Shown here piece after piece: positions 5,984 to 30,450 of a stretch of DNA of 53,516 bases. Below the pieces are notes generated by a model. The model was not told where the DNA came from. It ran no database searches and was given only the letters and a program-made list of their open reading frames with translations. Position 1 is the first letter of the stretch, and the number at the start of each line of letters is the position of its first letter. The position numbers and the translations under genes are program-made. This DNA is from Planctomycetia bacterium. Its GTDB lineage: Bacteria > Planctomycetota > Planctomycetia > Pirellulales > UBA7805. The stretch covers positions 1 to 53,516 of the forward strand of contig JAIOQB010000356.1 of NCBI GenBank assembly GCA_021413585.1, read 5' to 3'.

Positions 5984-6200
5984 TGTGCTGAGCGGGTCGG
6001 TGGTGCCGGCACTGGCAATGTCACTGGCACACGAAAGGAGCATGGCAGAGACGAGGTTACAGGTTGTGCCAAATTCCACCAATCAACAACAGATCACGGA
6101 CTACTGACCGCCGACATTATTTCGTGGCCAAGCGATCGGAAACAGTGGTTTCTGTTGAAGAAAGTCGTACAGGTCAATATTCCGTGGGCGAAGAGTCTGA

Positions 6201-6983
6201 ATGACAATGTCGTCGAACCAGCGAAGTTCCGCTGTTTATCCAAAGGGAAGGTTTACATTCCGATTATCTGGCATATTTGTCGCTACGTCTGTTATCGCTC
6301 TTTTTCTCGCTGTTTCCAACCAATGGAATGCAGGAGTCGGTATCCTCGCCGTATTGCTCACCCTTTCGGCAAGACGCCTATTTCAACGTAAAGCCCAAAC
6401 CACAAAAGCAATGACACGCTTGTGCATCTGTCTCGCAGTTATGGCCATTCTTGGCATCATCTTTAGTTGTGCTGGGTGGCCAATCGGGGTTTTCCAACTA
6501 GAGGGAGTTCTTTCCTACTATTGTGACGGCAAGCCCCTCGTTATCGACGACATTTGGGTTCACACTGTCATCGAGGGCAAACGCTCACGGTTCTGCATTC
6601 CTCCTATCGCGGCTGGTCGGTATGAAGGCCCTCCATTTAACGTCGGCCTCAAAGTGGTTGACTACGACAATCGACACGAATGCGAGTCAATGGAAATCAC
6701 ATCGCTCGTGCTGACGTGTGCAGGTCGCACGCATGTAATTGTGCAGAAGGGCAGTCATATTCAATCGTCATTCAGCACTTATGTTGACGGTGTTGCATCT
6801 GTCAAGTCCGATTGCCTAACCGACGTCGGCACATGGTTGTCAAAGAATAGTCAATCACCTGTCGAGATCGATGTAATCTTTGTCATTCACATGCGGCAAG
6901 GCACGATTAAAGGTACAACTCACGCGACCATGCGGCCGCAAGAAAGAAATGGCTGGAGTCTTGTAGCACCGCCAGATGCATGA
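6201..6983 (+). CDS. Hypothetical membrane protein, lower GC than flanks
   Basis: 260-aa ORF with 2-3 N-terminal hydrophobic segments; AT-richer sequence. Confidence 0.5.
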   Translation: MTMSSNQRSSAVYPKGRFTFRLSGIFVATSVIALFLAVSNQWNAGVGILAVLLTLSARRLFQRKAQTTKAMTRLCICLAVMAILGIIFSCAGWPIGVFQLEGVLSYYCDGKPLVIDDIWVHTVIEGKRSRFCIPPIAAGRYEGPPFNVGLKVVDYDNRHECESMEITSLVLTCAGRTHVIVQKGSHIQSSFSTYVDGVASVKSDCLTDVGTWLSKNSQSPVEIDVIFVIHMRQGTIKGTTHATMRPQERNGWSLVAPPDA

Positions 6984-7068
6984 GGACGATTTTTTCAGTC
7001 AGAAAGCCTCCCGAAACCGTCTTTGCTCCAGGCAGCACCCAAAAGGAGTGCGCCCTGTTAACCACCGG

Positions 7069-19988: not shown

Positions 19989-20062
19989 GGGCGTTTAGCT
20001 CAGTTGGTTAGAGCGCCTTCCTCACACGGAGGAGGTCACAGGTTCGAGTCCTGTAACGCCCA
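19989..20062 (+). tRNA. tRNA-Val(CAC), integration target
   Basis: GGGCGTT/AACGCCC acceptor stem, TAGCTCAGTTGGTTAGAGC D-arm, CCTTC-CTCACAC-GGAGG anticodon arm, GGTTCGAGTCC T-loop; CCA not encoded. Confidence 0.95.
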
Positions 20063-21353
20063 TCGACATATGTACACTACGTGGTACTGTGTTGCTTTCA
20101 GCGGCTTTTTTGATGGTTGGCCCGGTCGCTTGTGACTCGGGGCAACCGTCTGCCGCGCTATGGTGTGCGCTGGGGTGTGCGCTTTTTCCGGCGCCCTGGT
20201 CGAAGTGGTCTTCGGTCACTTGCAGGTAGTGCTTCTTCGCCACGGCCATGCTGTTGCCGATCCACTTGCACACCACGTGAATCGGGAACGTCTCGGCCAG
20301 TTCCGTCTCGCGTGTGCTCCGCAGGTTTTGAAACAGTTTCGGCCAGACCGCCAGCCCGGCCTTGGTGATGATCTTCTGGAGCGTGGTCCGAAGATTCTGC
20401 CCAGCGTCACGGTAGCGTGTAATGACGTGCTGGGCGTCCCTCGGGGCAATCTGCCGGGCATCCTCCAGGTACGGCAGCAATTCAGGGAACAACGGCACCA
20501 CGCGGGATTCGCCCCCTTCGTGGTGTTCGGTCTTGGGGCTCCGCACGGTCATTCTGCCGGCAGCCCAGTTGATATCCTCCCATCGCAAGGCTAGATGCTC
20601 AGACGGGCACCGCAGGCCGCCGTAGCGGCTCAGGGCGAAGATCAGCCGCCATTCGGCGTCGGGGCACTTGTCGATGATCTTCGTAGCCGCTTCGGTGGTC
20701 ACAAAGTGATCGCGGCTCCGGTTGCTGCCGACGGCGCCGCTCAGGTCTTCAAACGGGTTGACGTGAATCAGCCCCTTCCGCATAGCTGCCTTAAAGAATT
20801 GCTTCGCGTTGCTGATCCGCTTGCGGACGGTGTTTGCCGCCAGCCCCGGAGGCTCCGCGGTCGGGTCTTTTTTCTTGGCCGCCTTGCTCCGCCGTGGATC
20901 CTTGGCCACGGTGGTCAAGTAGATGCGAAACCCATCGGCATCCCCGGGCGTGATATCCCGCAGCGGCTTGTCGGCGCCAAAGTGTTCCACGAGGTTTCGC
21001 CGGGTGTGCCCCCAGTTGGTCACCGTGGCTTGCTTCACGTCGGCCCGGGCCGCAATGTACCCCAGGACGAATGGCCCCAGCGTGCGGGCTCCCTTGCCCC
21101 CCGGCGCCGCAATCAACCCCGCCTTGGCCAGCCGCGCGGCCATCTTGGGTTTCAACCCCTTGAGCCATGCGGCCAATCCGGGATCGACGTCACGATTCAG
21201 TAGCCGGGCCTGTAGCAGCCCCTCGACACGGAGCTTGATATCCTGCGCCGATCGCTCAGTCACCTTGCCGAGCCATACGGTCTTGCGCTTCCCCTCTTCA
21301 TCGACGAATAAGATTCGCCGTCGTCCTTTTTGGTCGGTTCCGATACTTGCCAT
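20022..21353 (-). CDS. Tyrosine recombinase/phage integrase (443 aa; 3' end overlaps the tRNA antisense)
   Basis: SAM-like domain (KPLRDITPGDADGF), RYGGLRCPSE, SPKT, FQNLRST, WIGNS, KHYLQV. Confidence 0.92.
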   Translation of the reverse strand: MASIGTDQKGRRRILFVDEEGKRKTVWLGKVTERSAQDIKLRVEGLLQARLLNRDVDPGLAAWLKGLKPKMAARLAKAGLIAAPGGKGARTLGPFVLGYIAARADVKQATVTNWGHTRRNLVEHFGADKPLRDITPGDADGFRIYLTTVAKDPRRSKAAKKKDPTAEPPGLAANTVRKRISNAKQFFKAAMRKGLIHVNPFEDLSGAVGSNRSRDHFVTTEAATKIIDKCPDAEWRLIFALSRYGGLRCPSEHLALRWEDINWAAGRMTVRSPKTEHHEGGESRVVPLFPELLPYLEDARQIAPRDAQHVITRYRDAGQNLRTTLQKIITKAGLAVWPKLFQNLRSTRETELAETFPIHVVCKWIGNSMAVAKKHYLQVTEDHFDQGAGKSAHPSAHHSAADGCPESQATGPTIKKAAESNTVPRSVHMSMGVTGLEPVTSSV

Positions 21354-21536
21354 TTTGCTCACCTGCTTTCGTGTTAGAGTAAAAAATGCGGTTAGCCGGC
21401 GGGACGGACAATGCACGTCGCATTGTGATACCACTCCAGTTACCAGCCGCCGTCCCGTCGGCCCCGTCAACGCTTCCGCTGCCAGGGGCAATTTCCCAAC
21501 AGGCAGCATCATCGTCGACGCTCCGCATGGACGGCC

Positions 21537-21953
21537 TCACGCCCCGTCGTAAAACGCCATCACCATATCGGCCGCGATGCCTTGAATGTCGCGTTCTGGC
21601 CCCTCAGGGTCATAGTCCTTGTCGTGGCGGGGCGCGTCGTCAAGGTTGCACAACTTGCCCTTGATCTCGAACTCCCCCTCGAACTCCCGGGTATCACCAA
21701 TCTGGCGCACGTGAACTTTCAATTCAGTTGCCCCGGACCAAATCCGCTGGAGCTTGCGCGCGTTGCGCTCCAGGTGTTCCAGCGTATCGCCGACGCCTTC
21801 AAAGCCGGCGGCTTTCAGTGCAGCATCGCGGTTCTCGATAATCTTGGCGCAAATAGCGGCAGACTCCTTAGGCGTCCGCTTGCGCTGCCCCATCCCCTTG
21901 AACTCAGGCAGCTTTTCAAGCTGGCGAATGGCTTGGGCGAGTTCGTCCCTCAT
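21537..21953 (-). CDS. Hypothetical protein of the element
   Basis: 138-aa ORF, ATGA-coupled to the upstream ORF. Confidence 0.6.
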   Translation of the reverse strand: MRDELAQAIRQLEKLPEFKGMGQRKRTPKESAAICAKIIENRDAALKAAGFEGVGDTLEHLERNARKLQRIWSGATELKVHVRQIGDTREFEGEFEIKGKLCNLDDAPRHDKDYDPEGPERDIQGIAADMVMAFYDGA

Positions 21954-22174
21954 ACGGCACCGCCGATCCAGGCCGCCGCATCAGCATCGGTCAAATCGAG
22001 AATGCGCTCGTTACCGTGGCAGAGCGCGTCGCCCTCTTTGCGGACCAGCCGGTCGATGGCTTTGCCCTGTTGCTCCCGCTCAATTGCCTGCCAGCGCTTG
22101 AGCGATGCGCGGGCTAACAACTCAGGTCCGCTCGACATTCGCGCGCGGGGTCGCTTCGACACAATCCTTGACAT
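21950..22174 (-). CDS. Small hypothetical protein
   Basis: AAAGGA SD; coupled to the downstream ORF. Confidence 0.5.
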   Translation of the reverse strand: MSRIVSKRPRARMSSGPELLARASLKRWQAIEREQQGKAIDRLVRKEGDALCHGNERILDLTDADAAAWIGGAV

Positions 22175-22343
22175 GGGGAATCCTTTCGGCGCCGGCAGCC
22201 TGCCGGTCGCACCTTAGAATGAGTCCTGGCCCGCAACGGCCCTGCTAGGTGGTGCTTAGGCCACCATGGGGATCGTTGCCTACTCCCGAACCGCCACGGG
22301 CCAGGGCTCTTGATACTAAGCATGAGAATTTAGCAACCGCCGG

Positions 22344-22583
22344 TTATTGGCCGGGCGGTCTAAGCAAAGGGTTTAGCGTCACCAATTTTGCACACTCCCC
22401 AAGTGTCGTCAACCCTGTTTTTTCCACGTCCCCCAGGTCATGCGCGCTGCCGATCGTGCAACAGGCGCAATCGTATAGCTGCCGTTCTGGCAGTTTGTCC
22501 CCAATTGTGGACGTTTCGCCCTTCCGCCGCTCCGCGATGGCTTTCGCCCGCTTGAATGCGGCCGCCGTGCAATAGGGTTTCAT
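22344..22583 (-). CDS. Small hypothetical protein
   Basis: Start overlaps the stop of the tape-measure-like gene (ATGA). Confidence 0.35.
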   Translation of the reverse strand: MKPYCTAAAFKRAKAIAERRKGETSTIGDKLPERQLYDCACCTIGSAHDLGDVEKTGLTTLGECAKLVTLNPLLRPPGQ

Positions 22584-24127
22584 GCGATGCCGCCATCGGG
22601 CTGGAAGCGGGCCACGGTGTCCACTTTCTTAATCGAGGCGTCGATAGCTTCTAATTGCCTGCCCTGCCGAAGCGCTTCCTTCAGGTGTTCTTCCGCAGTT
22701 TCCTTTTGCCCAGACCTTAGTGCAGCCGCTTGAATCTGCTCGGCGAGTCCGGCAAGGCCCATGCGTTGGCTGTGGACTTCGGAATCGTGATTCATCAAGT
22801 CGAAGTGCAACACGCCCGCCTTGTGTCTGTCGGCTTCTTCTTTGGCGGCCCGCTCATCTTCGTGGATCGCCTTTAGCGATTCGTCGGCCTCTCGGAGAAA
22901 CATCTTGTCTTCCGCGATCTGTGCGCGCAGATTCCAATTTTTATTTAGAGCGTCATACTCTTCCTTCATTTGTTGCCCGGTCAAGTTCTCGATCTTTTCG
23001 ATGTGGGCCTCCCACGCGGCGAAAGCCTTTTCCCGCTCCGCTTCGACCACTTCGATATCGTTTCCTTCCAGCTTGGCGCGTTCCAGCGCCATATCGCGCA
23101 GCCGCTGATTGTGGTCGCGTTCGATATCCTCTTCCGCCTTGACCTGCTCTTCGTTGGCGGCAATGGCGGCTTGCGATTCGTTCGCCATGCTCAGGTAGCG
23201 GGCCTTCTCCGCTTTGATATCCCCCAGCTCTTTGTACGTGGCCTCCGTCTGCGCGCGGGCCTTGGCGGCATACTTGGCGCTGGCAGGGTTTTCGTCAGGC
23301 GTGTTCGCGCGGATATCCACGTCGGCCGCGTCGAGCGTCAACAGTTTGCCGAGTGCTGCCAGATCAAACTTGCCATCCTCATGGCCGGGCCCCGCCGCCT
23401 TCGCCCAGAACTTCACAATTTCGACCGTCGCGTCGGCGGTGCTTTCCTTGATGTTCTTCATCACCATCGGAATGCCGTGGGCCATCTCCTCTGCGGCGCC
23501 TTTGTAGCGATCCATCAGCTTTTCGAGGATTACGGTTTGGGCCGCGTGGGCATCGCCGCTGCGCTGCAGAACTTCGATTTCCTCTTTCTCTTCTTCCATC
23601 AGCGTGATGCCGACGCCGCGCAGCAGCTTGGCGGCGTGTTCGGGGTCGTTCAATGCCTTACCGAGCATCCGCGCGGCTTCCGGCAAGTCGGTTCCCATCA
23701 CTGTCGCCAGGTCGGCCGACAGTTTGAGCGTTTCGCGGAATGTGTCCCCCTTGATGTTCGTAAACGGCGCCATCACCGCCGCCGCGGCATACGCCTGCTC
23801 TTTGGTGAACATCGTCGCCTCGGCCAACTCGTCGGCCATGGCCCGCACTTGCCCGGCGGTATATCCGGCGGCATCGCCGCTGGCATGAATCGCCGCGTTC
23901 AGCCGATTGACGGACTTTTCCCGCTCTTCAAAGGTCTCATACAACTTCTTGATTCCCTCAACGCCCAAATAGCCGCCGAAAACGGCCTCCATCCTCTTGT
24001 GCATTTTTTCGGCCGCTTCCGCTGCGCTGCCGAACCGTTTGGAAATTGCGTCCAAGTCCCCTTCGACCTTTTGCCGGCCGCGGGTTTCGAGTTGGATGTA
24101 GCCTGTTTCGAGGGGTGTGTCGCCCAT
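22580..24127 (-). CDS. Phage tail tape-measure-like protein (lambda gpH N-terminal type), 515 aa
   Basis: LNAAIHASGDAAGYTAGQVRAMADEL...FTNIKG...DLATVMGTDL..AARMLGKALNDP....LRGVGI...AQTVILEKL...YKGAAE, followed by coiled coil. Confidence 0.8.
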   Translation of the reverse strand: MGDTPLETGYIQLETRGRQKVEGDLDAISKRFGSAAEAAEKMHKRMEAVFGGYLGVEGIKKLYETFEEREKSVNRLNAAIHASGDAAGYTAGQVRAMADELAEATMFTKEQAYAAAAVMAPFTNIKGDTFRETLKLSADLATVMGTDLPEAARMLGKALNDPEHAAKLLRGVGITLMEEEKEEIEVLQRSGDAHAAQTVILEKLMDRYKGAAEEMAHGIPMVMKNIKESTADATVEIVKFWAKAAGPGHEDGKFDLAALGKLLTLDAADVDIRANTPDENPASAKYAAKARAQTEATYKELGDIKAEKARYLSMANESQAAIAANEEQVKAEEDIERDHNQRLRDMALERAKLEGNDIEVVEAEREKAFAAWEAHIEKIENLTGQQMKEEYDALNKNWNLRAQIAEDKMFLREADESLKAIHEDERAAKEEADRHKAGVLHFDLMNHDSEVHSQRMGLAGLAEQIQAAALRSGQKETAEEHLKEALRQGRQLEAIDASIKKVDTVARFQPDGGIA

Positions 24128-24134
24128 GATGGCC

Positions 24135-24377
24135 TCAGTTGTGGGGGGAGTTGTTCAGCCGCTGAATGACCGCGCGAACGGTTTGAAGATTGCGCCGGAA
24201 TGTGGCCAGCTTCTCTTGAATGGCCAGCGCGTGGGCGGGGTCCGTGTCGATGGCATTGACCAATTCGACCATGGCCCGCTCTGTTGCTTCCATGCTGGCC
24301 AGGATAGCGGCCAGGTCTGCGCCCGGGCGTAGCATCGTCACGGCCTCGGGGACCATGCTGGGCTTGAACTTGGTCAT
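24135..24377 (-). CDS. Small helical hypothetical protein
   Basis: AAAGGA SD; 80 aa; directly upstream of the tape-measure-like gene. Confidence 0.55.
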   Translation of the reverse strand: MTKFKPSMVPEAVTMLRPGADLAAILASMEATERAMVELVNAIDTDPAHALAIQEKLATFRRNLQTVRAVIQRLNNSPHN

Positions 24378-24480
24378 AATGAATCCTTTGAAAAAACGGC
24401 CGGCCGCGAGGAAAGTTCAAAACCCCGCGACCGGCCGCCAGACACGACGCGGGAGGAGAAACACCCGCGCCAAATGCTTA

Positions 24481-25131
24481 TCACCATTCCGCCATTTGCT
24501 GATGCAGTTCATTGTGCCGGCGCGACTTGGCGGCCTGTTCCGCTTGAATTTGCGAATGCCGTTCCCGCGTGGCATCCAAATAAGTCTGGCAGCCCTCGCG
24601 GTCCGCGGGATCGCAACCTTGCAAATTGTTTAGCGCGCGGTCCACCGCGTCTTGCGCGTCGCGGATGGCCGGGTAAAGGGCCATAATTTCAGAGTCCAGC
24701 GCGCGGAAGTCGCGCTGCAGTGCCGTGTTCGGGCAGCTTCGCGCCAAGTCGGCGTCGATGGTCGCGATTTTGGCAATCGTCAGATTTAATTCCGCCAGTT
24801 CCAATTGAATGGCCCCCGCGGTGCGGCGGTGTTCGGCAACCGCAGCGTCGAGCTTGTCGTTGGCGGTGTCCAACTCGCGTTGCTGCGCGTCGCGTCGAGC
24901 TTCGAGCGTTTGCTTTTGGGCCGCTTGCTCGCGGAGCTTGGCGCGATACTTGAGATTGGCAACCAGGTCGTCCAGTTGCGGCGGCAGTTTGCCGGCATCC
25001 CGCAAAATGTCGGCAATCGCGGTGCTGCCGACTTGCTCGCCCATCGCGATGCGGCGAGCCAGCGTCATAAACGAGTCGCCCCGCTCGGTCAAAATCTCCC
25101 CGGCCTCTTGTACGTCAGTCTTCGCTACCAT
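24481..25131 (-). CDS. Coiled-coil hypothetical protein
   Basis: 216-aa ORF rich in A/Q/L/E/R heptads; GAGGAG upstream. Confidence 0.65.
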   Translation of the reverse strand: MVAKTDVQEAGEILTERGDSFMTLARRIAMGEQVGSTAIADILRDAGKLPPQLDDLVANLKYRAKLREQAAQKQTLEARRDAQQRELDTANDKLDAAVAEHRRTAGAIQLELAELNLTIAKIATIDADLARSCPNTALQRDFRALDSEIMALYPAIRDAQDAVDRALNNLQGCDPADREGCQTYLDATRERHSQIQAEQAAKSRRHNELHQQMAEW

Positions 25132-25450
25132 AGCTTTCGCGCTCCTCTTTTAGTTGTGCAAACATTGCCCGCGATTCGGCCATCGCTGCAGCGCGATGGA
25201 TTCGCAGCACGTCTTCGGTCAAATCTTCTTCGTCGCGTTCGACGGACGCCAGAATCTCCGTCATGTTTTCATTCGTGAAAGTTTCGGCGCCATCATCAGC
25301 CGCAATCTCTTCGACGAGCGCGGCATACAGTTCCTGATGGTCTTCCAATTCCGTCTCTGCTCCGCAGCCACCGCGGATAATGTCGCAATCTTTTTTCATT
25401 TCGCTGCGCCATCCGTCAACCGCCGCCGCAAAAATCTCTGGGCTTTTCAT
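25115..25450 (-). CDS. Acidic hypothetical protein
   Basis: ATGA-coupled to the upstream gene; D/E-rich. Confidence 0.55.
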   Translation of the reverse strand: MKSPEIFAAAVDGWRSEMKKDCDIIRGGCGAETELEDHQELYAALVEEIAADDGAETFTNENMTEILASVERDEEDLTEDVLRIHRAAAMAESRAMFAQLKEERESYGSED

Positions 25451-26127
25451 ACCGTTGCTCCGTTGGTGTATCGCGCCACGTCGGCCGCCCACAGGTCGGC
25501 AAACGCTTGGGGCACGGGGGTTGCTTCAATTTCCGCGAACGTGCTGCCCATCAGTCGCTGCGGTTCGTCGTCTAATGCTGCGGCATATTTCAACAAATGG
25601 GAAAGTCCATACCGCTCGCCCGCCGCGCAGCCGCCGGCCAGGAACTTGAAGTCGTGTTCCCAGGCGCGATGGCAGACGTGAATAAAAATCCTGATGAACC
25701 TGTCGCCGTGGTCACTGTGCCAGGGCTCGGGCCCGTCCGCAAACCTGTCGGCAGGCAATTCGGCCCACAGGATCGAATAGCGCTGTCCGTTTCTCACGGC
25801 CGCCGCCGAACTCTCGGGTTCGGCAATGGGCCGCGCAGGCAGGCAATGGGTCAACTCGTGCGCGAACGTCGCCAGCGGGTCGATGCACTCGCGCAACAGC
25901 CTGTCGAGTTGCAACACGATCGCCGGCGCCGGGCCGCGCCAAGCTCCGCGCGATTCCAAGTGCGCCTTGGTAAACGGTTCGACGTGCTGCGGAGTTGCCC
26001 AGGCCGTGCTATGCGATGGCGCCGGCATCCCATCCGGCGGCGCGCCGAGAATGTAGAGCGTCGGCAGTTCCGGCGCAACCGCGGCGGCCAGTCTGTGACA
26101 CTCAGCGATGATGGTTTCGCGTTCCAT
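25447..26127 (-). CDS. Putative zincin metallopeptidase (HExxH; SprT/ImmA-like)
   Basis: TFAHELTHCL plus downstream WHSDHGDRF. Confidence 0.55.
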   Translation of the reverse strand: MERETIIAECHRLAAAVAPELPTLYILGAPPDGMPAPSHSTAWATPQHVEPFTKAHLESRGAWRGPAPAIVLQLDRLLRECIDPLATFAHELTHCLPARPIAEPESSAAAVRNGQRYSILWAELPADRFADGPEPWHSDHGDRFIRIFIHVCHRAWEHDFKFLAGGCAAGERYGLSHLLKYAAALDDEPQRLMGSTFAEIEATPVPQAFADLWAADVARYTNGATV

Positions 26128-26137
26128 GATGGTAATG

Positions 26138-26362
26138 CTACACATTGGGTTCTGAGCTATTGCCAGTCGCTGGCAATTCGATAATCCGCAAGTGCCGGCA
26201 GGAACATTCCCGGCAGATGCACTTCTGGGTTGTGGATCCATCGCTACCGTTGTTTTCGCTGCGGATGATGATGGGTTTGCGGTCGGTGTCGCAATGCGGG
26301 CAGCGCACCGGCGGCTGCCGCTGAATGAACAACATCGGGGCGGCTTCCCAATTTTCACGCAT
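26138..26362 (-). CDS. Small C4 zinc-ribbon protein (Ogr/Delta-like architecture)
   Basis: CPHC...CRECS. Confidence 0.5.
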   Translation of the reverse strand: MRENWEAAPMLFIQRQPPVRCPHCDTDRKPIIIRSENNGSDGSTTQKCICRECSCRHLRIIELPATGNSSEPNV

Positions 26363-26711
26363 CAGGCACCCCCTTGAGCCGGGCCCGCCCGGCATCAGTT
26401 ACCCGAATACGCCGATTGAATCGCTCGACCAGCCCGTCGACCTCCAGCCCCTTGATGGCCTGCTGGCAGCGGATGCGCTCGCTCGGCGTTGGCCAGTAAC
26501 CCAGGAACTTCGGGATGTCATAGATCGCACCAAACAGCCGCGTGTCCTGAATCTCTTGACGTAGGTAGCCAGTGAGCGGGTTGCGGGCAGCAACCTCTCG
26601 GGCCAACTCGGCGCGAAGCTCCAGACGGGCGGCAACCGTGGCTTTCCTGATGCCGGCCAGCAGCTTGGTGGCGTCGATGTGGATGGTTTTGGGACGGCCC
26701 ATGATGGTCAC
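26355..26711 (-). CDS. Hypothetical protein, possible winged-helix C-terminus
   Basis: MGRPK start; AIKGLEVDGLVER...IRVTDAGR. Confidence 0.55.
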   Translation of the reverse strand: MTIMGRPKTIHIDATKLLAGIRKATVAARLELRAELAREVAARNPLTGYLRQEIQDTRLFGAIYDIPKFLGYWPTPSERIRCQQAIKGLEVDGLVERFNRRIRVTDAGRARLKGVPDA

Positions 26712-26907
26712 TCGGGTTTATTTGTTCGCGGACGGACTAATCCATATCTGCGCGGGATGGGGGTGGTGAACCTCGCCTGTCGCTTTTCCCCCAAGGACCC
26801 GCGTTTTTTATAGGCCCACCCACGCCCCGCCTGTGCGTCATCGTCAACCGTACAACTCTGCACTCCGCAAGCGTGATCGTGTGTCTAATGCGGTCCTGTG
26901 CGAGCCA

Positions 26908-28389
26908 TCAGAACTCCCCGTTCCTGTCGCCGTAGTCGTCTGACTCTGTATCTTGAACGTCTTGAGCGCCTAATACCCCATACAACTTGGTAGGTATGTT
27001 TATTCCCGAAGATTCTTCAACACTCTCAAGACGCTCAAGACGCTCAAGTTCTTTTAGTCGCTCAACCGTGAACGCCTTCCCCGGCGCCTGCAAAAACCAT
27101 GGGCCGGGGCAAATTGGGCGAATGGCTTTCACCCCCAATTGCTTCCGCGCCCTTCGGAGCGTGGATAGCGATATGGCCATCGCCTTGGCCTCTGCCTCAA
27201 CGTCCTTTGTCGGGGTCGGGCCATCAGCGAGCCGCTGCTGAAGGAACTCCACCGCCTCGCGCTGGGCATCAGCCCCGGGGCCAGGGCGTGCGGCTGCTTG
27301 CTCCGCCGCCAGGGAGTCGTCTGCCGACATATCCACCGCCTCACGCTCCCAATGGACGCTGGCCGGTTCGCCGGCAATGGTGAACGCCAGCCCGGTCCCC
27401 TCGGCCGCCAGATTGTTTTTGCCGGGCAGCATCAATCGGCGTTGCTTCTCTTTTGGATCGCGGCTGACGTGCCAGACGGCGCGGGCGATGCCGGTGAAAG
27501 CGCGGCTGCCGAGTGCCAGGTCGTCCGCGGTGGCACCTTGGGCCTTGCGTCGATGTGCGACCACGACAACAGCCGGGCCATACTTTTCCGCCAGCTTGGC
27601 GATGGGGGCCAGCACGGCCCGGACTTCGTTGTCCCGGTGGGCATCCGTCTTGCCGCCGAGAAAGCTGCCGATGGGATCCACCACCACTAGCCGGCAATCG
27701 GGCAGAGTCTTTAGCGTTGCCTCAATCGCGTCCACGTCGGCAAGGCTAATCAGCCGCTCATATTCGCCCTCGACGCCAAGCCCGCGCACTGCGGACAGTA
27801 GGTGTACCTTGCTGCAATCGGCGCGGTGGGCATCAAGTCGCGGCCGGATCGTGTCGCCGGGATCGTCTTCCGCCGTCAACAGCAGCACAGAGCCCTTTTC
27901 ACATTTTGCGCCGTCTGGGAATGGCGTTCCCGTGCTGGTGTTGGCCGCCATGTAGACGGTAGCGAACGACTTCCCCTCGCCGGGACGCCCAACGAACAAC
28001 GTGATTCGACCGGCAGGGATTCGGCCCTCCCAATACCACTTGATTTCCTTCGGTTCAACGTCTGCCATGCAAATCACTACTGGCGTTTGCAGTGGAGCGG
28101 AATCAGCCCGCGCGTCTTCCGCATCGGCCTTGGCGATTAGTTCGCCTTCAATGAACTCGTGAGCGTCTTCGCCGAGCCCAAACCGCTCGATAACCCGGTC
28201 GCGGAACTTCGCTCGCATCCACGCCGCGGAAGTATCGAGCTTGTCCCGGTACTCCGTGCCGTTGCGTTGCGCGATGGCCAGCCGCTTTCCATCGCGATCA
28301 ACTGGGCCGACGTGGATGGCCAGCGGTCCTAATCCGCCGTCGTGATAATTCCAGCGTGCTTGGTCTTCAGGGGTGGCAATTTGCGTCAT
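26908..28389 (-). CDS. AAA_25/RepA-like SF4 helicase (replication protein)
   Basis: WYWEGRIPAG, GRPGEGKS (Walker A), LTAED, LVVVDP (Walker B), VAHRRK, GSRAF, KNNL; C-terminal winged-helix-like segment. Confidence 0.85.
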   Translation of the reverse strand: MTQIATPEDQARWNYHDGGLGPLAIHVGPVDRDGKRLAIAQRNGTEYRDKLDTSAAWMRAKFRDRVIERFGLGEDAHEFIEGELIAKADAEDARADSAPLQTPVVICMADVEPKEIKWYWEGRIPAGRITLFVGRPGEGKSFATVYMAANTSTGTPFPDGAKCEKGSVLLLTAEDDPGDTIRPRLDAHRADCSKVHLLSAVRGLGVEGEYERLISLADVDAIEATLKTLPDCRLVVVDPIGSFLGGKTDAHRDNEVRAVLAPIAKLAEKYGPAVVVVAHRRKAQGATADDLALGSRAFTGIARAVWHVSRDPKEKQRRLMLPGKNNLAAEGTGLAFTIAGEPASVHWEREAVDMSADDSLAAEQAAARPGPGADAQREAVEFLQQRLADGPTPTKDVEAEAKAMAISLSTLRRARKQLGVKAIRPICPGPWFLQAPGKAFTVERLKELERLERLESVEESSGINIPTKLYGVLGAQDVQDTESDDYGDRNGEF

Positions 28390-28688
28390 CGGTTCCCCCG
28401 TGCGCGGATGATGGCCGCCGGTGGCGCCGCGCTGGTTGCTGGCCGATGGGTCGTCACTGGCCGATAGATGGGCGTCTCGGCGCCAATCGTCGCCGCCCGC
28501 ACCATATCGTGAGTCTCCTGCAGTCGGCGTATCTCGACCGGCAGGTCCATTAGCACGTCCAGGGCCTCTAGCTCCTGTCGGAGTGTGCCAAGTCGTGGCA
28601 CTTCGGCCAGCACGTCGGCGTGGTATCCCCTCGATTGCGCGGCCGCGCGAACGGCTCGTTCTCTGCGGCGGGATCGGATATAATCCAT
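28386..28688 (-). CDS. Hypothetical protein
   Basis: GGGAG SD; coupled to the helicase start. Confidence 0.5.
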   Translation of the reverse strand: MDYIRSRRRERAVRAAAQSRGYHADVLAEVPRLGTLRQELEALDVLMDLPVEIRRLQETHDMVRAATIGAETPIYRPVTTHRPATSAAPPAAIIRARGNR

Positions 28689-28741
28689 TTCAGTTCTCCC
28701 GCCCGGGTTCGGCCTGCCAGCCACCGGGCATTTTTATTGGG

Positions 28742-28927
28742 TTAGCGGGCCGTGGCGGTTTCACGCTCGGCGAGATACTGCTGGATGGCCTCTGGCCTGA
28801 ACAACAGGCGGCGCCCCAGGCGGACGCAAGGGAATCGGCCGGCCTTGGCCTCACGGCGAAGCCACGATGCACTAACGCGAACCTCTTCGGCGGCTTCGGT
28901 GACGTTCAACGCTAATCTGGTCGTCAT
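28742..28927 (-). CDS. Excisionase/AlpA-like HTH protein (HTH_17)
   Basis: LALNVTEAAEEVRVSASWLRREAKAGRFPCVRLGRRLLFRPEAIQQYL; GGAG SD. Confidence 0.85.
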   Translation of the reverse strand: MTTRLALNVTEAAEEVRVSASWLRREAKAGRFPCVRLGRRLLFRPEAIQQYLAERETATAR

Positions 28928-29015
28928 TTGATTTCTCCGGCTATGTGGTGCCGCCCCGTGCGGCTGACTTGAGAAACGATAGCCACATTCGCGCGGCGAG
29001 AAAAATGCGCGCAGA

Positions 29016-29089
29016 AAAACGCCCGAGCGCTTTTTAGAAAAACACTCGGGCGTTTTGAAAAGTTGGAAAGAAAAGCGCTCGAGCGTTTT
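29016..29089. promoter_or_regulatory. Three imperfect palindromes (putative operators) upstream of the xis-like gene
   Basis: aaaacgcccgagcgctttt, aaaacactcgggcgtttt, aaaagcgctcgagcgtttt. Confidence 0.5.
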
Positions 29090-29090
29090 A

Positions 29091-29780
29091 TCAGCGGCCG
29101 CGGAGCCGTTTATTCAGAGTAGGCACTGAAACACTGTGCTGTTTGGCGAGCTTTTCAATAGCCTTGGCTCGCGTGCGATTGCCCGTCGTCAACGCAACTA
29201 ATTCGGCGTTCAGGGTATCGGCTGACACATCCTTCAATTTCCTTGTGCCACTGCCGCCTTTCGATGCGTTTCGCTTATTTCCGAACTTCGCGCCGTGCTT
29301 CGCGGCGTTTCGCAAAAGCGATCGCTGGTAGGCCATCCCAGCGCGAAAGGCATAATCTATCGTGGATCGTATGTCCGGCGGTCCCGAGAATGTAGCCCAA
29401 TGCTCTGCTGAATTGCCGTCATCGTTTTCCCAACCAATTAGAATCTGGCCGTGGTATTCAATGCCCAGGCAGTTTTCCCAAATCGTTTGGGCATCGCCTT
29501 GAATTGAATCCGCAACACTGGATCCACGAGGTGGAAACTCTATGACTTTTTTTCTTGCCTCGCGAAGCAACTGCAGTGTTTGCGGCGGATAGCTTTCAGG
29601 CGGGCGGCCCCGCAAGTTGGCCGTGTTTTCGTCTACTTCATAGACGGCTGGTTTTTCTCTGCTCTTTTTGAGAATCGCCAGCGCTGGCGATATCGCATTA
29701 ACCTGCCCGGCTACCGAACCGGCTGAAAACACCTGCCCGATAACGCTACCAGCCTTAGCTTTCGCTTTCTTCTTCGCCAT
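29091..29780 (-). CDS. Hypothetical regulator with C-terminal HTH-like segment
   Basis: MAKKK start with CAGGTGAGC RBS; C-terminal RAKAIEKLAKQHSVSVPTLNKRL. Confidence 0.55.
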   Translation of the reverse strand: MAKKKAKAKAGSVIGQVFSAGSVAGQVNAISPALAILKKSREKPAVYEVDENTANLRGRPPESYPPQTLQLLREARKKVIEFPPRGSSVADSIQGDAQTIWENCLGIEYHGQILIGWENDDGNSAEHWATFSGPPDIRSTIDYAFRAGMAYQRSLLRNAAKHGAKFGNKRNASKGGSGTRKLKDVSADTLNAELVALTTGNRTRAKAIEKLAKQHSVSVPTLNKRLRGR

Positions 29781-29799
29781 GATGCTCACCTGTGGTTGA

Positions 29800-29873
29800 G
29801 CCGAGCCGGCCGGCCATCGTCCCGCAGGTGAGCGCCCGGGAACGATGGCCAGCCGTGTGCAGGGAGCTACCCC
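29800..29873 (-). ncRNA. Putative structured regulatory RNA with anti-RBS loop
   Basis: Stem 29807-29823/29838-29855; loop GCUCACCUGC; 5' GGGUAGCUCCC. Confidence 0.45.
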
Positions 29874-30096
29874 GCGACCCGATGCGTGCATTCTAACGGG
29901 CTTTGACCTTCGTGGGAGTCGCCTGGACGGCCGCCAGCAGCCGGGCCCGGGCCGCGGGCGTCAACGAGGATAGGGCCTCGACCAGCCCCGCGATATCGTC
30001 ATCCGGTGCCCCGTGTGCGCCATAGTGTGCGCTAACTGGCAAAATCCCGGTTTCATCCGGTGAATGTGGACCCTGTTCGAGTCCTGTAACGCCCAT

Positions 30097-30280
30097 TGGC
30101 TCCAAGTTTTCAGCGAGAAATCCGCATAATTCTAGGAGTTGTAGGGTTCCATTCTCCTTCAGTTCGTCCCGCTCCGGGGTAGTCTGCACCACATTTGGTG
30201 CAGTTTCGCCCGCCACGAGCCCAGACGCTTTGGCGAAGTGTGGGCTCCGCACGGTCATTCTGCCGGCCGCCCAGTTGACC
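30097..30280 (-). pseudogene. Internally deleted integrase remnant of a second element
   Basis: About 30242-30279 matches about 20536-20572 almost exactly (NWAAGRMTVRSP) and is fused directly to an HFAKA.. tail. Confidence 0.7.
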
Positions 30281-30327
30281 GCCACCGCATCCTGATTACC
30301 TCGAATCCCCTCCGGCAGGCTGGCGAT

Positions 30328-30450
30328 CAATGGCACTTACTTTGTGGAAAAATCACGTAGTCTCACGAAATGCTAGCTGCGGATTCTTGGGGAATTTGCA
30401 GCTAGCAATTTCACATTGGGCTTCATTCAAACGTAAAGTAAGTGCCATTG
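30328..30450. mobile_element. 123-bp MITE (IS4-like ends)
   Basis: 16-bp perfect TIR CAATGGCACTTACTTT/AAAGTAAGTGCCATTG; 10-bp target duplication GGCTGGCGAT at 30318-30327 and 30451-30460. Confidence 0.85.

Follow-up and report, generated by a model that had tools for sequence, protein, structure and literature searches.

An integrase C-terminal module that integration into tRNA genes appears to sever, in a large and mostly planctomycetal clade

In the fusellovirus SSV1, integration splits the integrase gene into two separated parts. In Myxococcus phage Mx8, the phage attachment site (attP) is situated inside the protein-coding stretch of the integrase gene (int), and integration creates a new int 3' end that changes the specificity of the enzyme rather than inactivating it, a principle that Mx9 uses in similar form, as stated in the part of the source available (PMC6070905); that Mx8 int crosses attP is also stated, together with the SSV1 case, in the accessible part of the Islander paper (PMC4383910). 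In mycobacteriophages of the BPs/Brujita type it is the repressor gene that contains attP, and integration removes a C-terminal degradation tag and so acts as a sensor, according to the available portion of the report (PMC3694055). Here we describe an integrative element of a Planctomycetia bacterium (assembly GCA_021413585.1, contig JAIOQB010000356.1, positions 1 to 53,516; this whole stretch of 53,516 nucleotides is hereafter the window), inserted in a transfer RNA (tRNA) gene, whose tyrosine integrase is read through the attachment (att) core and would end differently in the integrated and the excised state. An original prediction, made from the letters of the window, had proposed two such state-specific forms of the integrase; we examine them against relatives of the integrase and of the segment that it loses.

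The only tRNA that ARAGORN finds in the window is tRNA-Val(CAC), and its 3' end is repeated exactly, over 22 nucleotides (nt) and in direct orientation, at the far end of the element (Table 1). In terms of the tRNA, this 22-bp core consists of the final base of the T-stem's 5' strand, the T-loop and the T-stem's 3' strand, then the acceptor stem's 3' strand, the discriminator and a single base beyond it. No third copy of the core is present in the window at up to three mismatches, and the 22-nt repeat is absent from 100 shuffles. A complete tRNA at one end and a displaced 3' fragment at the other form the usual signature of tRNA 3'-end integration, and what we see is an integrative element of 10 kb that occupies the 3' end of tRNA-Val(CAC); its two core copies start 10,033 bp apart, and all the genes in between are on the minus strand. 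A contig of one public sequencing run with this DNA (26177-30357) bridges attR, which shows that the integrated arrangement is not an artefact of this assembly, though that run may be the assembly's source. A loose end past 20063 in the public run continues into other sequence and was set aside, as it probably belongs to the tRNA-Val of another organism.

The integrase open reading frame (ORF) lies on the minus strand (20022-21512) and encodes 496 amino acids (aa) counted from the first ATG, but the alignments of relatives begin at Met54, which gives an integrase of 443 aa. Pfam recognizes the catalytic domain of a tyrosine recombinase (PF00589, residues 273-433 of the 496-aa ORF, E = 2.4e-8, 34.4 bits with a cut-off of 27.1) and, before it, a SAM-like core-binding domain (PF13102, residues 157-255, E = 2.5e-7). 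Among 91 aligned family members, R248, K274, R345 and W364 are invariant and H359 and Y376 nearly invariant (443-aa numbering); we take R248, K274, R345, H359/W364 and Y376 to be the catalytic Arg, Lys, Arg, His/Trp and Tyr nucleophile. Both Pfam domains are complete before the core is reached, and the core itself sits within the ORF, 3' of the catalytic domain and 6 codons before the stop. From the end of the catalytic domain it is about 55 codons to the core and about 60 to the stop. The last 60 codons are of low complexity and run antisense into the tRNA, so that the prophage-form protein ends in ...MGVTGLEPVTSSV*, its stop codon TGA (20022-20024) being the complement of tRNA U33-C34-A35, that is, of U33 and the first two anticodon bases. 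The genome to which the window belongs holds a single copy of this integrase, a scan of viral contigs gave no relative, and tblastn against phage records returned, among the matches listed, only distant ones of about 24% identity, mostly coliphage integrases. As a separate observation, a contig of run X1 jumps from 21805 to 20730 with 26 other letters between, and may stem from a copy of the integrase region that is rearranged or related.

At the other end of the element, minus strand 30096-30075 also reads MGVTGLE, and the frame then stays open for 60 codons (30074-29896) until TAG closes it at 29895-29893. The in-silico junction of the two ends encodes an integrase of 497 aa, versus 443 aa in the integrated state. 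Hence the MGVTGLE core, the 443-aa integrated form, the 60-codon continuation and the 497-aa form of the circle, all of them named in the original prediction, are confirmed by the ORFs, the exact repeat and the in-silico junction. The other two frames over the same 180 nt contain one and three stops. At about 60% guanine plus cytosine (G+C), the chance of an open 60-codon frame is, by rough estimate, 10-20%; since such frames are common at this G+C content, the open frame in the window alone is weak evidence, and its significance comes from the relatives.

The test that the original prediction named beforehand was whether frame and tail are kept at the att ends of related elements. A firm second att copy is present in four relatives besides the window (our loci L004, L026, L001 with L031, and L053; Table 1). 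In four of four, the integrase frame stays open behind the second copy over 50-75 codons and closes with the motif seen in the window, and in L004 and L026 the remaining two frames are full of stops. By simple arithmetic, the chance of finding the right frame in four relatives is about 1 in 81, before the openness of the frame and the shared motif are counted. Two weaker pairs agree with the firm ones, namely L052 (12 nt) and L009/L036 (13 nt, on two different contigs), and the test is thus positive in all four firm pairs and in both weaker ones. What had been seen as a curiosity of a single element is in fact a property of a very large integrase clade. Four further loci were rejected as att pairs: in L016 the sole repeat, of 14 nt, lies just outside the tRNA and is followed by a stop after 8 codons and no tail, while a tail lies upstream of int in L075, which has no repeat of 10 nt or more, in L081, whose integrase runs off the contig, and in L119, whose integrase end is not in a tRNA.

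The habit of reading into tRNAs extends throughout the integrase family. At least 5718 proteins among the 8000 candidates scored are relatives at E <= 1e-10, and the named ones come from Planctomycetota. An antisense T-arm peptide (GLEP, GFEP, GVEP and the like, a loose pattern) falls within the last 25 residues in 108 of the 120 best database relatives, and among 29 genome loci there are 22 with the stop codon of the integrase inside an antisense tRNA. Out of 80 metagenome loci, ARAGORN places the end of the integrase in an antisense tRNA at 42, whereas 12 run off the contig; of the other 26, 16 end by eye in a T-arm-antisense peptide, the tRNA being cut by the contig end or read through. The tRNA targets of the family comprise Val, Met, Glu, Lys, Asn, Phe, Ser, Ala, Tyr, Arg and Leu. 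The core is separated from the catalytic tyrosine by 50-60 poorly conserved codons that nevertheless stay open in most members, which argues that selection may act on reading through the linker to the core.

We built a profile from 11 tails and scored it against 1.84 billion representative proteins; 9358 match at E <= 0.001 and 738 at E <= 1e-10. The 150 best matches are ORFs of 63-231 aa, most of which consist of an antisense-tRNA core peptide (e.g. MGDTGLE, PPRGVE, AGIEP or GGIRT) followed by the tail, and a core-like peptide stands 30-75 residues before W..LP in 139 of them by a loose pattern. Behind the core, the plan of the module is a short ..S.GKT.. stretch, then GGAESGA, then DPDL....AWP.LPEAIRAGILAMVRA, with DPDLxxxxxAWPxLPxAxRAGILAMV as the alignment consensus of the terminal hairpin. 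From the W to the protein end there is a median of 23 residues (17-67 in the best 150), and the residues past the hairpin vary in sequence and in length. The profile matches the window at 29896-30102 (E = 4.4e-14); the tail there aligns over its entire length, yet it has diverged, with SAHYGAHGA for GGAESGA and LSSLTP for AWPxLP. The tail occurs at E <= 1e-6 in 16 of 121 genomes sampled evenly across the phylum, a sample to which the own genome belongs. The module has no match in Pfam, NCBIfam or the PDB sequences (best PDB E = 0.46), in the ESM Atlas it occurs only among unnamed Planctomycetota clusters of 67-86 aa, and a word-based search of longer proteins with the tail alignment returned 5 proteins only, others probably being crowded out. 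The literature that we searched, with most subscription journals outside it and the Islander/TIGER supplementary tables, which might list such integrases, not covered, contains no description of the planctomycetal clade or of the tail. A few matches have an unusual build: P0128 and P0229 each hold two tails in one short ORF, the end of the first tail being followed by a core-like stretch and the second tail, which fits tandem or nested insertions, and in L046 (G073:C2, oriented 1767-2029) a complete tRNA-Ala, rather than the usual displaced 3' fragment, is read antisense in an open frame into the tail.

The manner in which the tail is conserved bears on whether it is a protein at all. Frame and similarity could reflect constraint on the DNA of the attP arms, as sites for integrase or excisionase, or chance in G+C-rich DNA. 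A 60-codon open frame is by itself not rare at this G+C content, as noted above, and pairs of the 8-mer GTGTGCGC lie within coding DNA to either side of the core: four of the seven copies in the window form two pairs beside the two att cores, and these pairs are candidate arm-type integrase sites. They also encode SAH-rich peptides on both sides of the core. On the other hand, no 8-mer occurs three or more times near the cores of L004 or L026, relatives that lack equivalent arm repeats and carry the same tail. Moreover, over 22 tails and 51 columns the first, second and third codon positions have mean pairwise nucleotide identities of 0.456, 0.544 and 0.390, and conservation that is highest at position 2 and lowest at position 3 marks a translated sequence and not a DNA site. 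The amino-acid motif is kept across thousands of clusters despite a varying length of the linker. We therefore regard an explanation at the DNA level alone as highly improbable; judged from these sequence patterns, the tail module is under constraint as a protein.

AlphaFold2, run on the 67 residues of the window together with 78 aligned tails, predicts helices at residues 33-43 and 47-59 (predicted local distance difference test, pLDDT, 86-96) and leaves the first 30 residues poorly ordered; the "amphipathic helical tail" of the original prediction holds for two confident helices and fails for the first half of the segment. The same hairpin is modelled in P0017, a natural, full-length protein of 500 aa that is 55% identical to the window integrase, at pLDDT 74-91 behind a linker below 50. 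The body of P0017 begins with a three-stranded sheet and a helix, and its best structural matches are to full-length lambda Int (1z1b, 1z1g and 5j0n; E from 2.6e-12, 364-397 aligned columns), with XerA and Tn1549 Int next in rank. The modelled integrase body looks like that of a lambda-type heterobivalent enzyme, with a putative arm-binding domain. A complex prediction of integrase body and tail scored 0.00 and counts neither for nor against binding.

If the fusion is real, the tail could be mainly a stability signal, the integrase of the circle being proteolysed or short-lived and that of the integrated form stable, and "stability" was one option in the original prediction. ssrA-like degradation tags are short, and a conserved module of 55 aa with a confident helical hairpin far exceeds the known tags of this kind. 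The residues past the hairpin, moreover, vary in sequence and length. The tail does lie behind a long disordered linker, and there is precedent for integration removing a C-terminal degradation tag, in Int and Rep of BPs-type mycobacteriophages, as the accessible part of that work describes (PMC3694055). We consider a stability signal an unlikely main role, although it is the leading alternative for what the hairpin does, and return to the reading in which the tail is a working part of the integrase.

Whether tail and integrase are indeed one protein can be asked of natural sequences in public data in which the two are contiguous. P0017 combines integrase, core and tail at full length, and P0196, cut by the contig, joins the C-terminal half of an integrase to linker, core and canonical tail. 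In L084 integrase and core are contiguous with a variant tail, of which the profile matches only the first half (E = 6.7e-4), and in L012 (6165-7466, on a 619-kb contig) integrase, core and tail share one frame with one in-frame stop inside the integrase and no adjacent tRNA, so that this locus would be a fused copy that has become a pseudogene, or else a recoded gene. Such contiguous ORFs could represent circles or tandem arrays. The window itself appears to retain a relic of the fused state, since the ORF 29893-30336 consists of an integrase relic, the core and the tail. The relic is a decayed integrase fragment from this family that shares its frame with the attR core and has a 37-nt island of 97% identity to 20536-20572 and weak tblastn matches of family proteins (E 1e-4 to 1e-2); lying just outside attR, it points to a previous element at this tRNA-Val site or to a tandem array that once stood there. 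Two other candidates for fused copies were rejected, L061 because it reads past a core-like peptide into an apparent host gene, and a 468-aa open frame with tail in G006 because the protein is not an integrase.

Several observations weigh against a fused, tailed integrase. The full tail profile is fused to an integrase in none of the 80 metagenome loci, and there is no full-length integrase among the best 150 tail matches, so the fused form is rare in assemblies, and where it occurs it could stem from tandem arrays rather than from circles. No attP joint of a circle and no attB joint of an empty site is present among the contigs of one public run, which is possibly the source sample and in whose contigs rare forms would be invisible. 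The tail of the window is a diverged member in which the W and P of the W..LP motif are missing. Five tails match in the own genome, against one integrase of the family; the four extra tails, each behind an antisense-tRNA-like peptide (Table 1), may be orphan ends of elements or belong to elements whose integrase is unassembled. The counts that rest on peptide patterns are loose, and the 120 relatives were ranked with a query that already carried the tRNA-antisense end, which may slightly favour like ends. Lastly, 56 of the 150 best tail ORFs start no more than 7 residues from the core, where the antisense of a tRNA 3' end often provides an ATG or GTG, as it does in the window, whose core begins with ATG.

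This last observation invites the view that a separate small gene at the element's right end encodes the tail as a protein of 63-70 aa, started from the ATG or GTG in the core, and that the run of the integrase into the tRNA is incidental; the integrated state, by far the most sampled, indeed has the tail only apart from the integrase. However, cores of the tRNA-Glu type read xTA-CCC (I/V-P-P-R-G-V-E), without an in-frame start codon, and have the same tail behind them, which means that the tails there cannot be self-standing genes. A ribosome-binding site for such a gene would fall in arbitrary host DNA outside the element, whereas the conserved peptide starts exactly at the crossover boundary. 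The open integrase frames through an unconserved linker to the core and the natural fused ORFs likewise speak against a separate gene, and we find this alternative quite unlikely. That a fused, tailed integrase is real and selected is, as a statement about structure, likely in our judgement, and the conservation of frame and tail in relatives, with the protein-level constraint on the tail, supports the two state-specific forms of the original prediction.

How such an integrase would work can be proposed in outline. The attP core would lie within the integrase ORF, preceded by the catalytic domain with its disordered linker and followed by a conserved module, about 55 aa long, whose end forms a two-helix hairpin. 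Recombination with the tRNA would sever the gene at the core, leaving the integrated copy to encode the 443-aa enzyme, with its whole catalytic domain and with six tRNA-antisense codons in place of the tail, and excision would restore the tailed 497-aa enzyme on the circle. The two forms would then differ in activity or site preference, by analogy with the phage and prophage forms of the Mx8 integrase, the tailed enzyme being made only while the element is circular; with an excisionase-like gene in the element, the Mx8 scheme is the simplest model. Our preferred guess is that the hairpin helps to assemble or activate the integrative complex, and that the prophage form would thereby be attenuated and dependent on excisionase; any particular function of the tail is much less certain than its existence. 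In its full extent, we propose an undescribed, large and mostly planctomycetal clade with a built-in sensor of integration, a two-helix module that is joined to the integrase only in the circle and is needed for, or directs, integrative recombination; this we put forward tentatively, as a possibility that we would not yet call probable.

The remaining genes of the element (Table 1) include a 61-aa protein of the excisionase-like kind, relatives of which are present in the L004 and L053 elements, and a 493-aa AAA_25 protein that is probably the replication gene of the element. A 515-aa protein with tape-measure matches stands out in an element otherwise without virion genes, and may be satellite-like cargo or a coiled-coil or low-complexity match. 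Elsewhere in the window, G+C dips to 0.495 at 6001-7000 versus about 0.6.

Table 1. Features of the element and its target in the window, with att pairs of relatives and further tails of the own genome
Feature	Location	Strand	Basis
tRNA-Val(CAC), integration target; 3' part from the element	19989..20062	+	ARAGORN
Prophage-form integrase (443 aa), with SAM-like and catalytic domains before a ~60-aa linker antisense into the tRNA	20022..21353	-	ORF, Pfam, alignment of relatives
attL copy of the 22-bp core; MGVTGLE in the integrase frame	20042..20063	.	exact repeat, 0 expected
GTGTGCGC pair, 12 nt apart, in linker-coding DNA, 100-120 bp inside attL	20163..20182	+	repeat count
515-aa protein with tape-measure matches	22580-24127	-	Pfam TMP_2 E 6.6e-12; PHROG E 2.5e-21
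Primase/helicase-like AAA_25 protein, 493 aa	26908..28389	-	family matches
Excisionase-like helix-turn-helix gene, 61 aa	28742..28927	-	PHROG excisionase families, E 6.7e-9 and 1.2e-8
ORF without known family, 266 aa; first ATG one base past the tail-frame stop	29091..29891	-	ORF and family scans
Tail-coding segment, 60 codons and TAG, in frame with the core; predicted C-terminal module of the excised-state integrase	29893..30074	-	ORF, in-silico junction, profile match
Second GTGTGCGC pair, 12 nt apart, same orientation, in tail-coding DNA, 43-62 bp inside attR	30013..30032	+	repeat count
attR copy of the 22-bp core; displaced tRNA 3' fragment	30075..30096	.	exact repeat
Decayed fragment of an older integrase of the family, sharing the frame of the attR core; makes up the upstream part of ORF 29893-30336	30103..30309	-	37-nt island, tblastn
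L004 att pair, tRNA-Lys; element ~6.9 kb			25-nt repeat
L026 att pair, tRNA-Met; ~3.7 kb			22-nt repeat
L001 with L031 att pair, tRNA-Glu; ~42 kb apart, one contig			24-nt repeat
L053 att pair, tRNA-Val(TAC); ~6.8 kb			24-nt repeat
Further own-genome tails, loci L040-L043	G000 C482:6708-6902, C262:3738-3932, C448:4516-4632, C89:16417-16518		each behind an antisense-tRNA-like peptide

If the proposal is true, integration disarms the enzyme, and excision or tandem insertion re-arms it, and the peculiarity of Mx8 becomes a general, modular control of directionality. What was the curiosity of a single phage would turn into a testable design of a whole family, in which the integrase gene records the state of integration and one module of 55 aa carries the difference. 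Many orphan small ORFs of Planctomycetota, now "hypothetical proteins", would be explained as severed integrase tails, up to the 9358 representative clusters matched by the profile, and this would be useful for annotating the genomes of the phylum and for mapping the ends of islands. The sets of integrase, att sites and excisionase for many different tRNAs might, if active, provide integration tools for Planctomycetota.

The P0017 model matches lambda Int over its full length, including the N-terminal beta domain, and the window has an excisionase-like gene and candidate arm repeats, but lambda int does not cross attP as the window integrase does. Lambda Int has a short C-terminal tail that regulates its activity, and this tail offers no counterpart of the 50-aa linker and the hairpin. 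The original prediction had drawn its analogies from SSV1 and the mycobacteriophages; the idea is indeed shared, while the anatomy differs from both, and Mx8, which it did not name, is closer. As in SSV1-type viruses, attP lies in the integrase gene and the target is a tRNA (PMC4383910, in its accessible part), but here a single ORF retains the complete SAM-like and catalytic domains, the exchange being confined to a C-terminal module, with no partition of the enzyme. With the BPs/Brujita type the locus shares an attP inside coding sequence and C-termini that differ between the viral and the prophage genome, as the available portion of that paper describes them (PMC3694055); the split gene, however, is here the integrase and not a repressor, and the part removed is a conserved, folded module.

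The closest precedent is the IntP/IntX pair of Mx8, the phage and prophage forms of its integrase, rather than SSV1. As in the window, attP lies in int, the catalytic domain remains whole and a helix-turn-helix gene related to excision is nearby, and the Int of the Mx8 genome record reads an antisense-tRNA-like ...STGLEPV... followed by about 112 residues. Replacement of the C-terminus on integration, with a longer ORF restored in the circle, is likewise found, in silico, in the window, L004, L026, L001/L031 and L053. The two integrases are nevertheless only distantly related (BLASTP E = 0.004 over 125 residues, 26% identity), Mx8 is not among the listed phage matches of the window integrase, and no W..LP hairpin motif is seen by eye in the Mx8 tail. 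Thus the kind of arrangement is known from Mx8, and what is new is its occurrence, across many tRNA targets, as the common property of an unrelated, very large and mostly planctomycetal clade with a defined and so far unannotated module.

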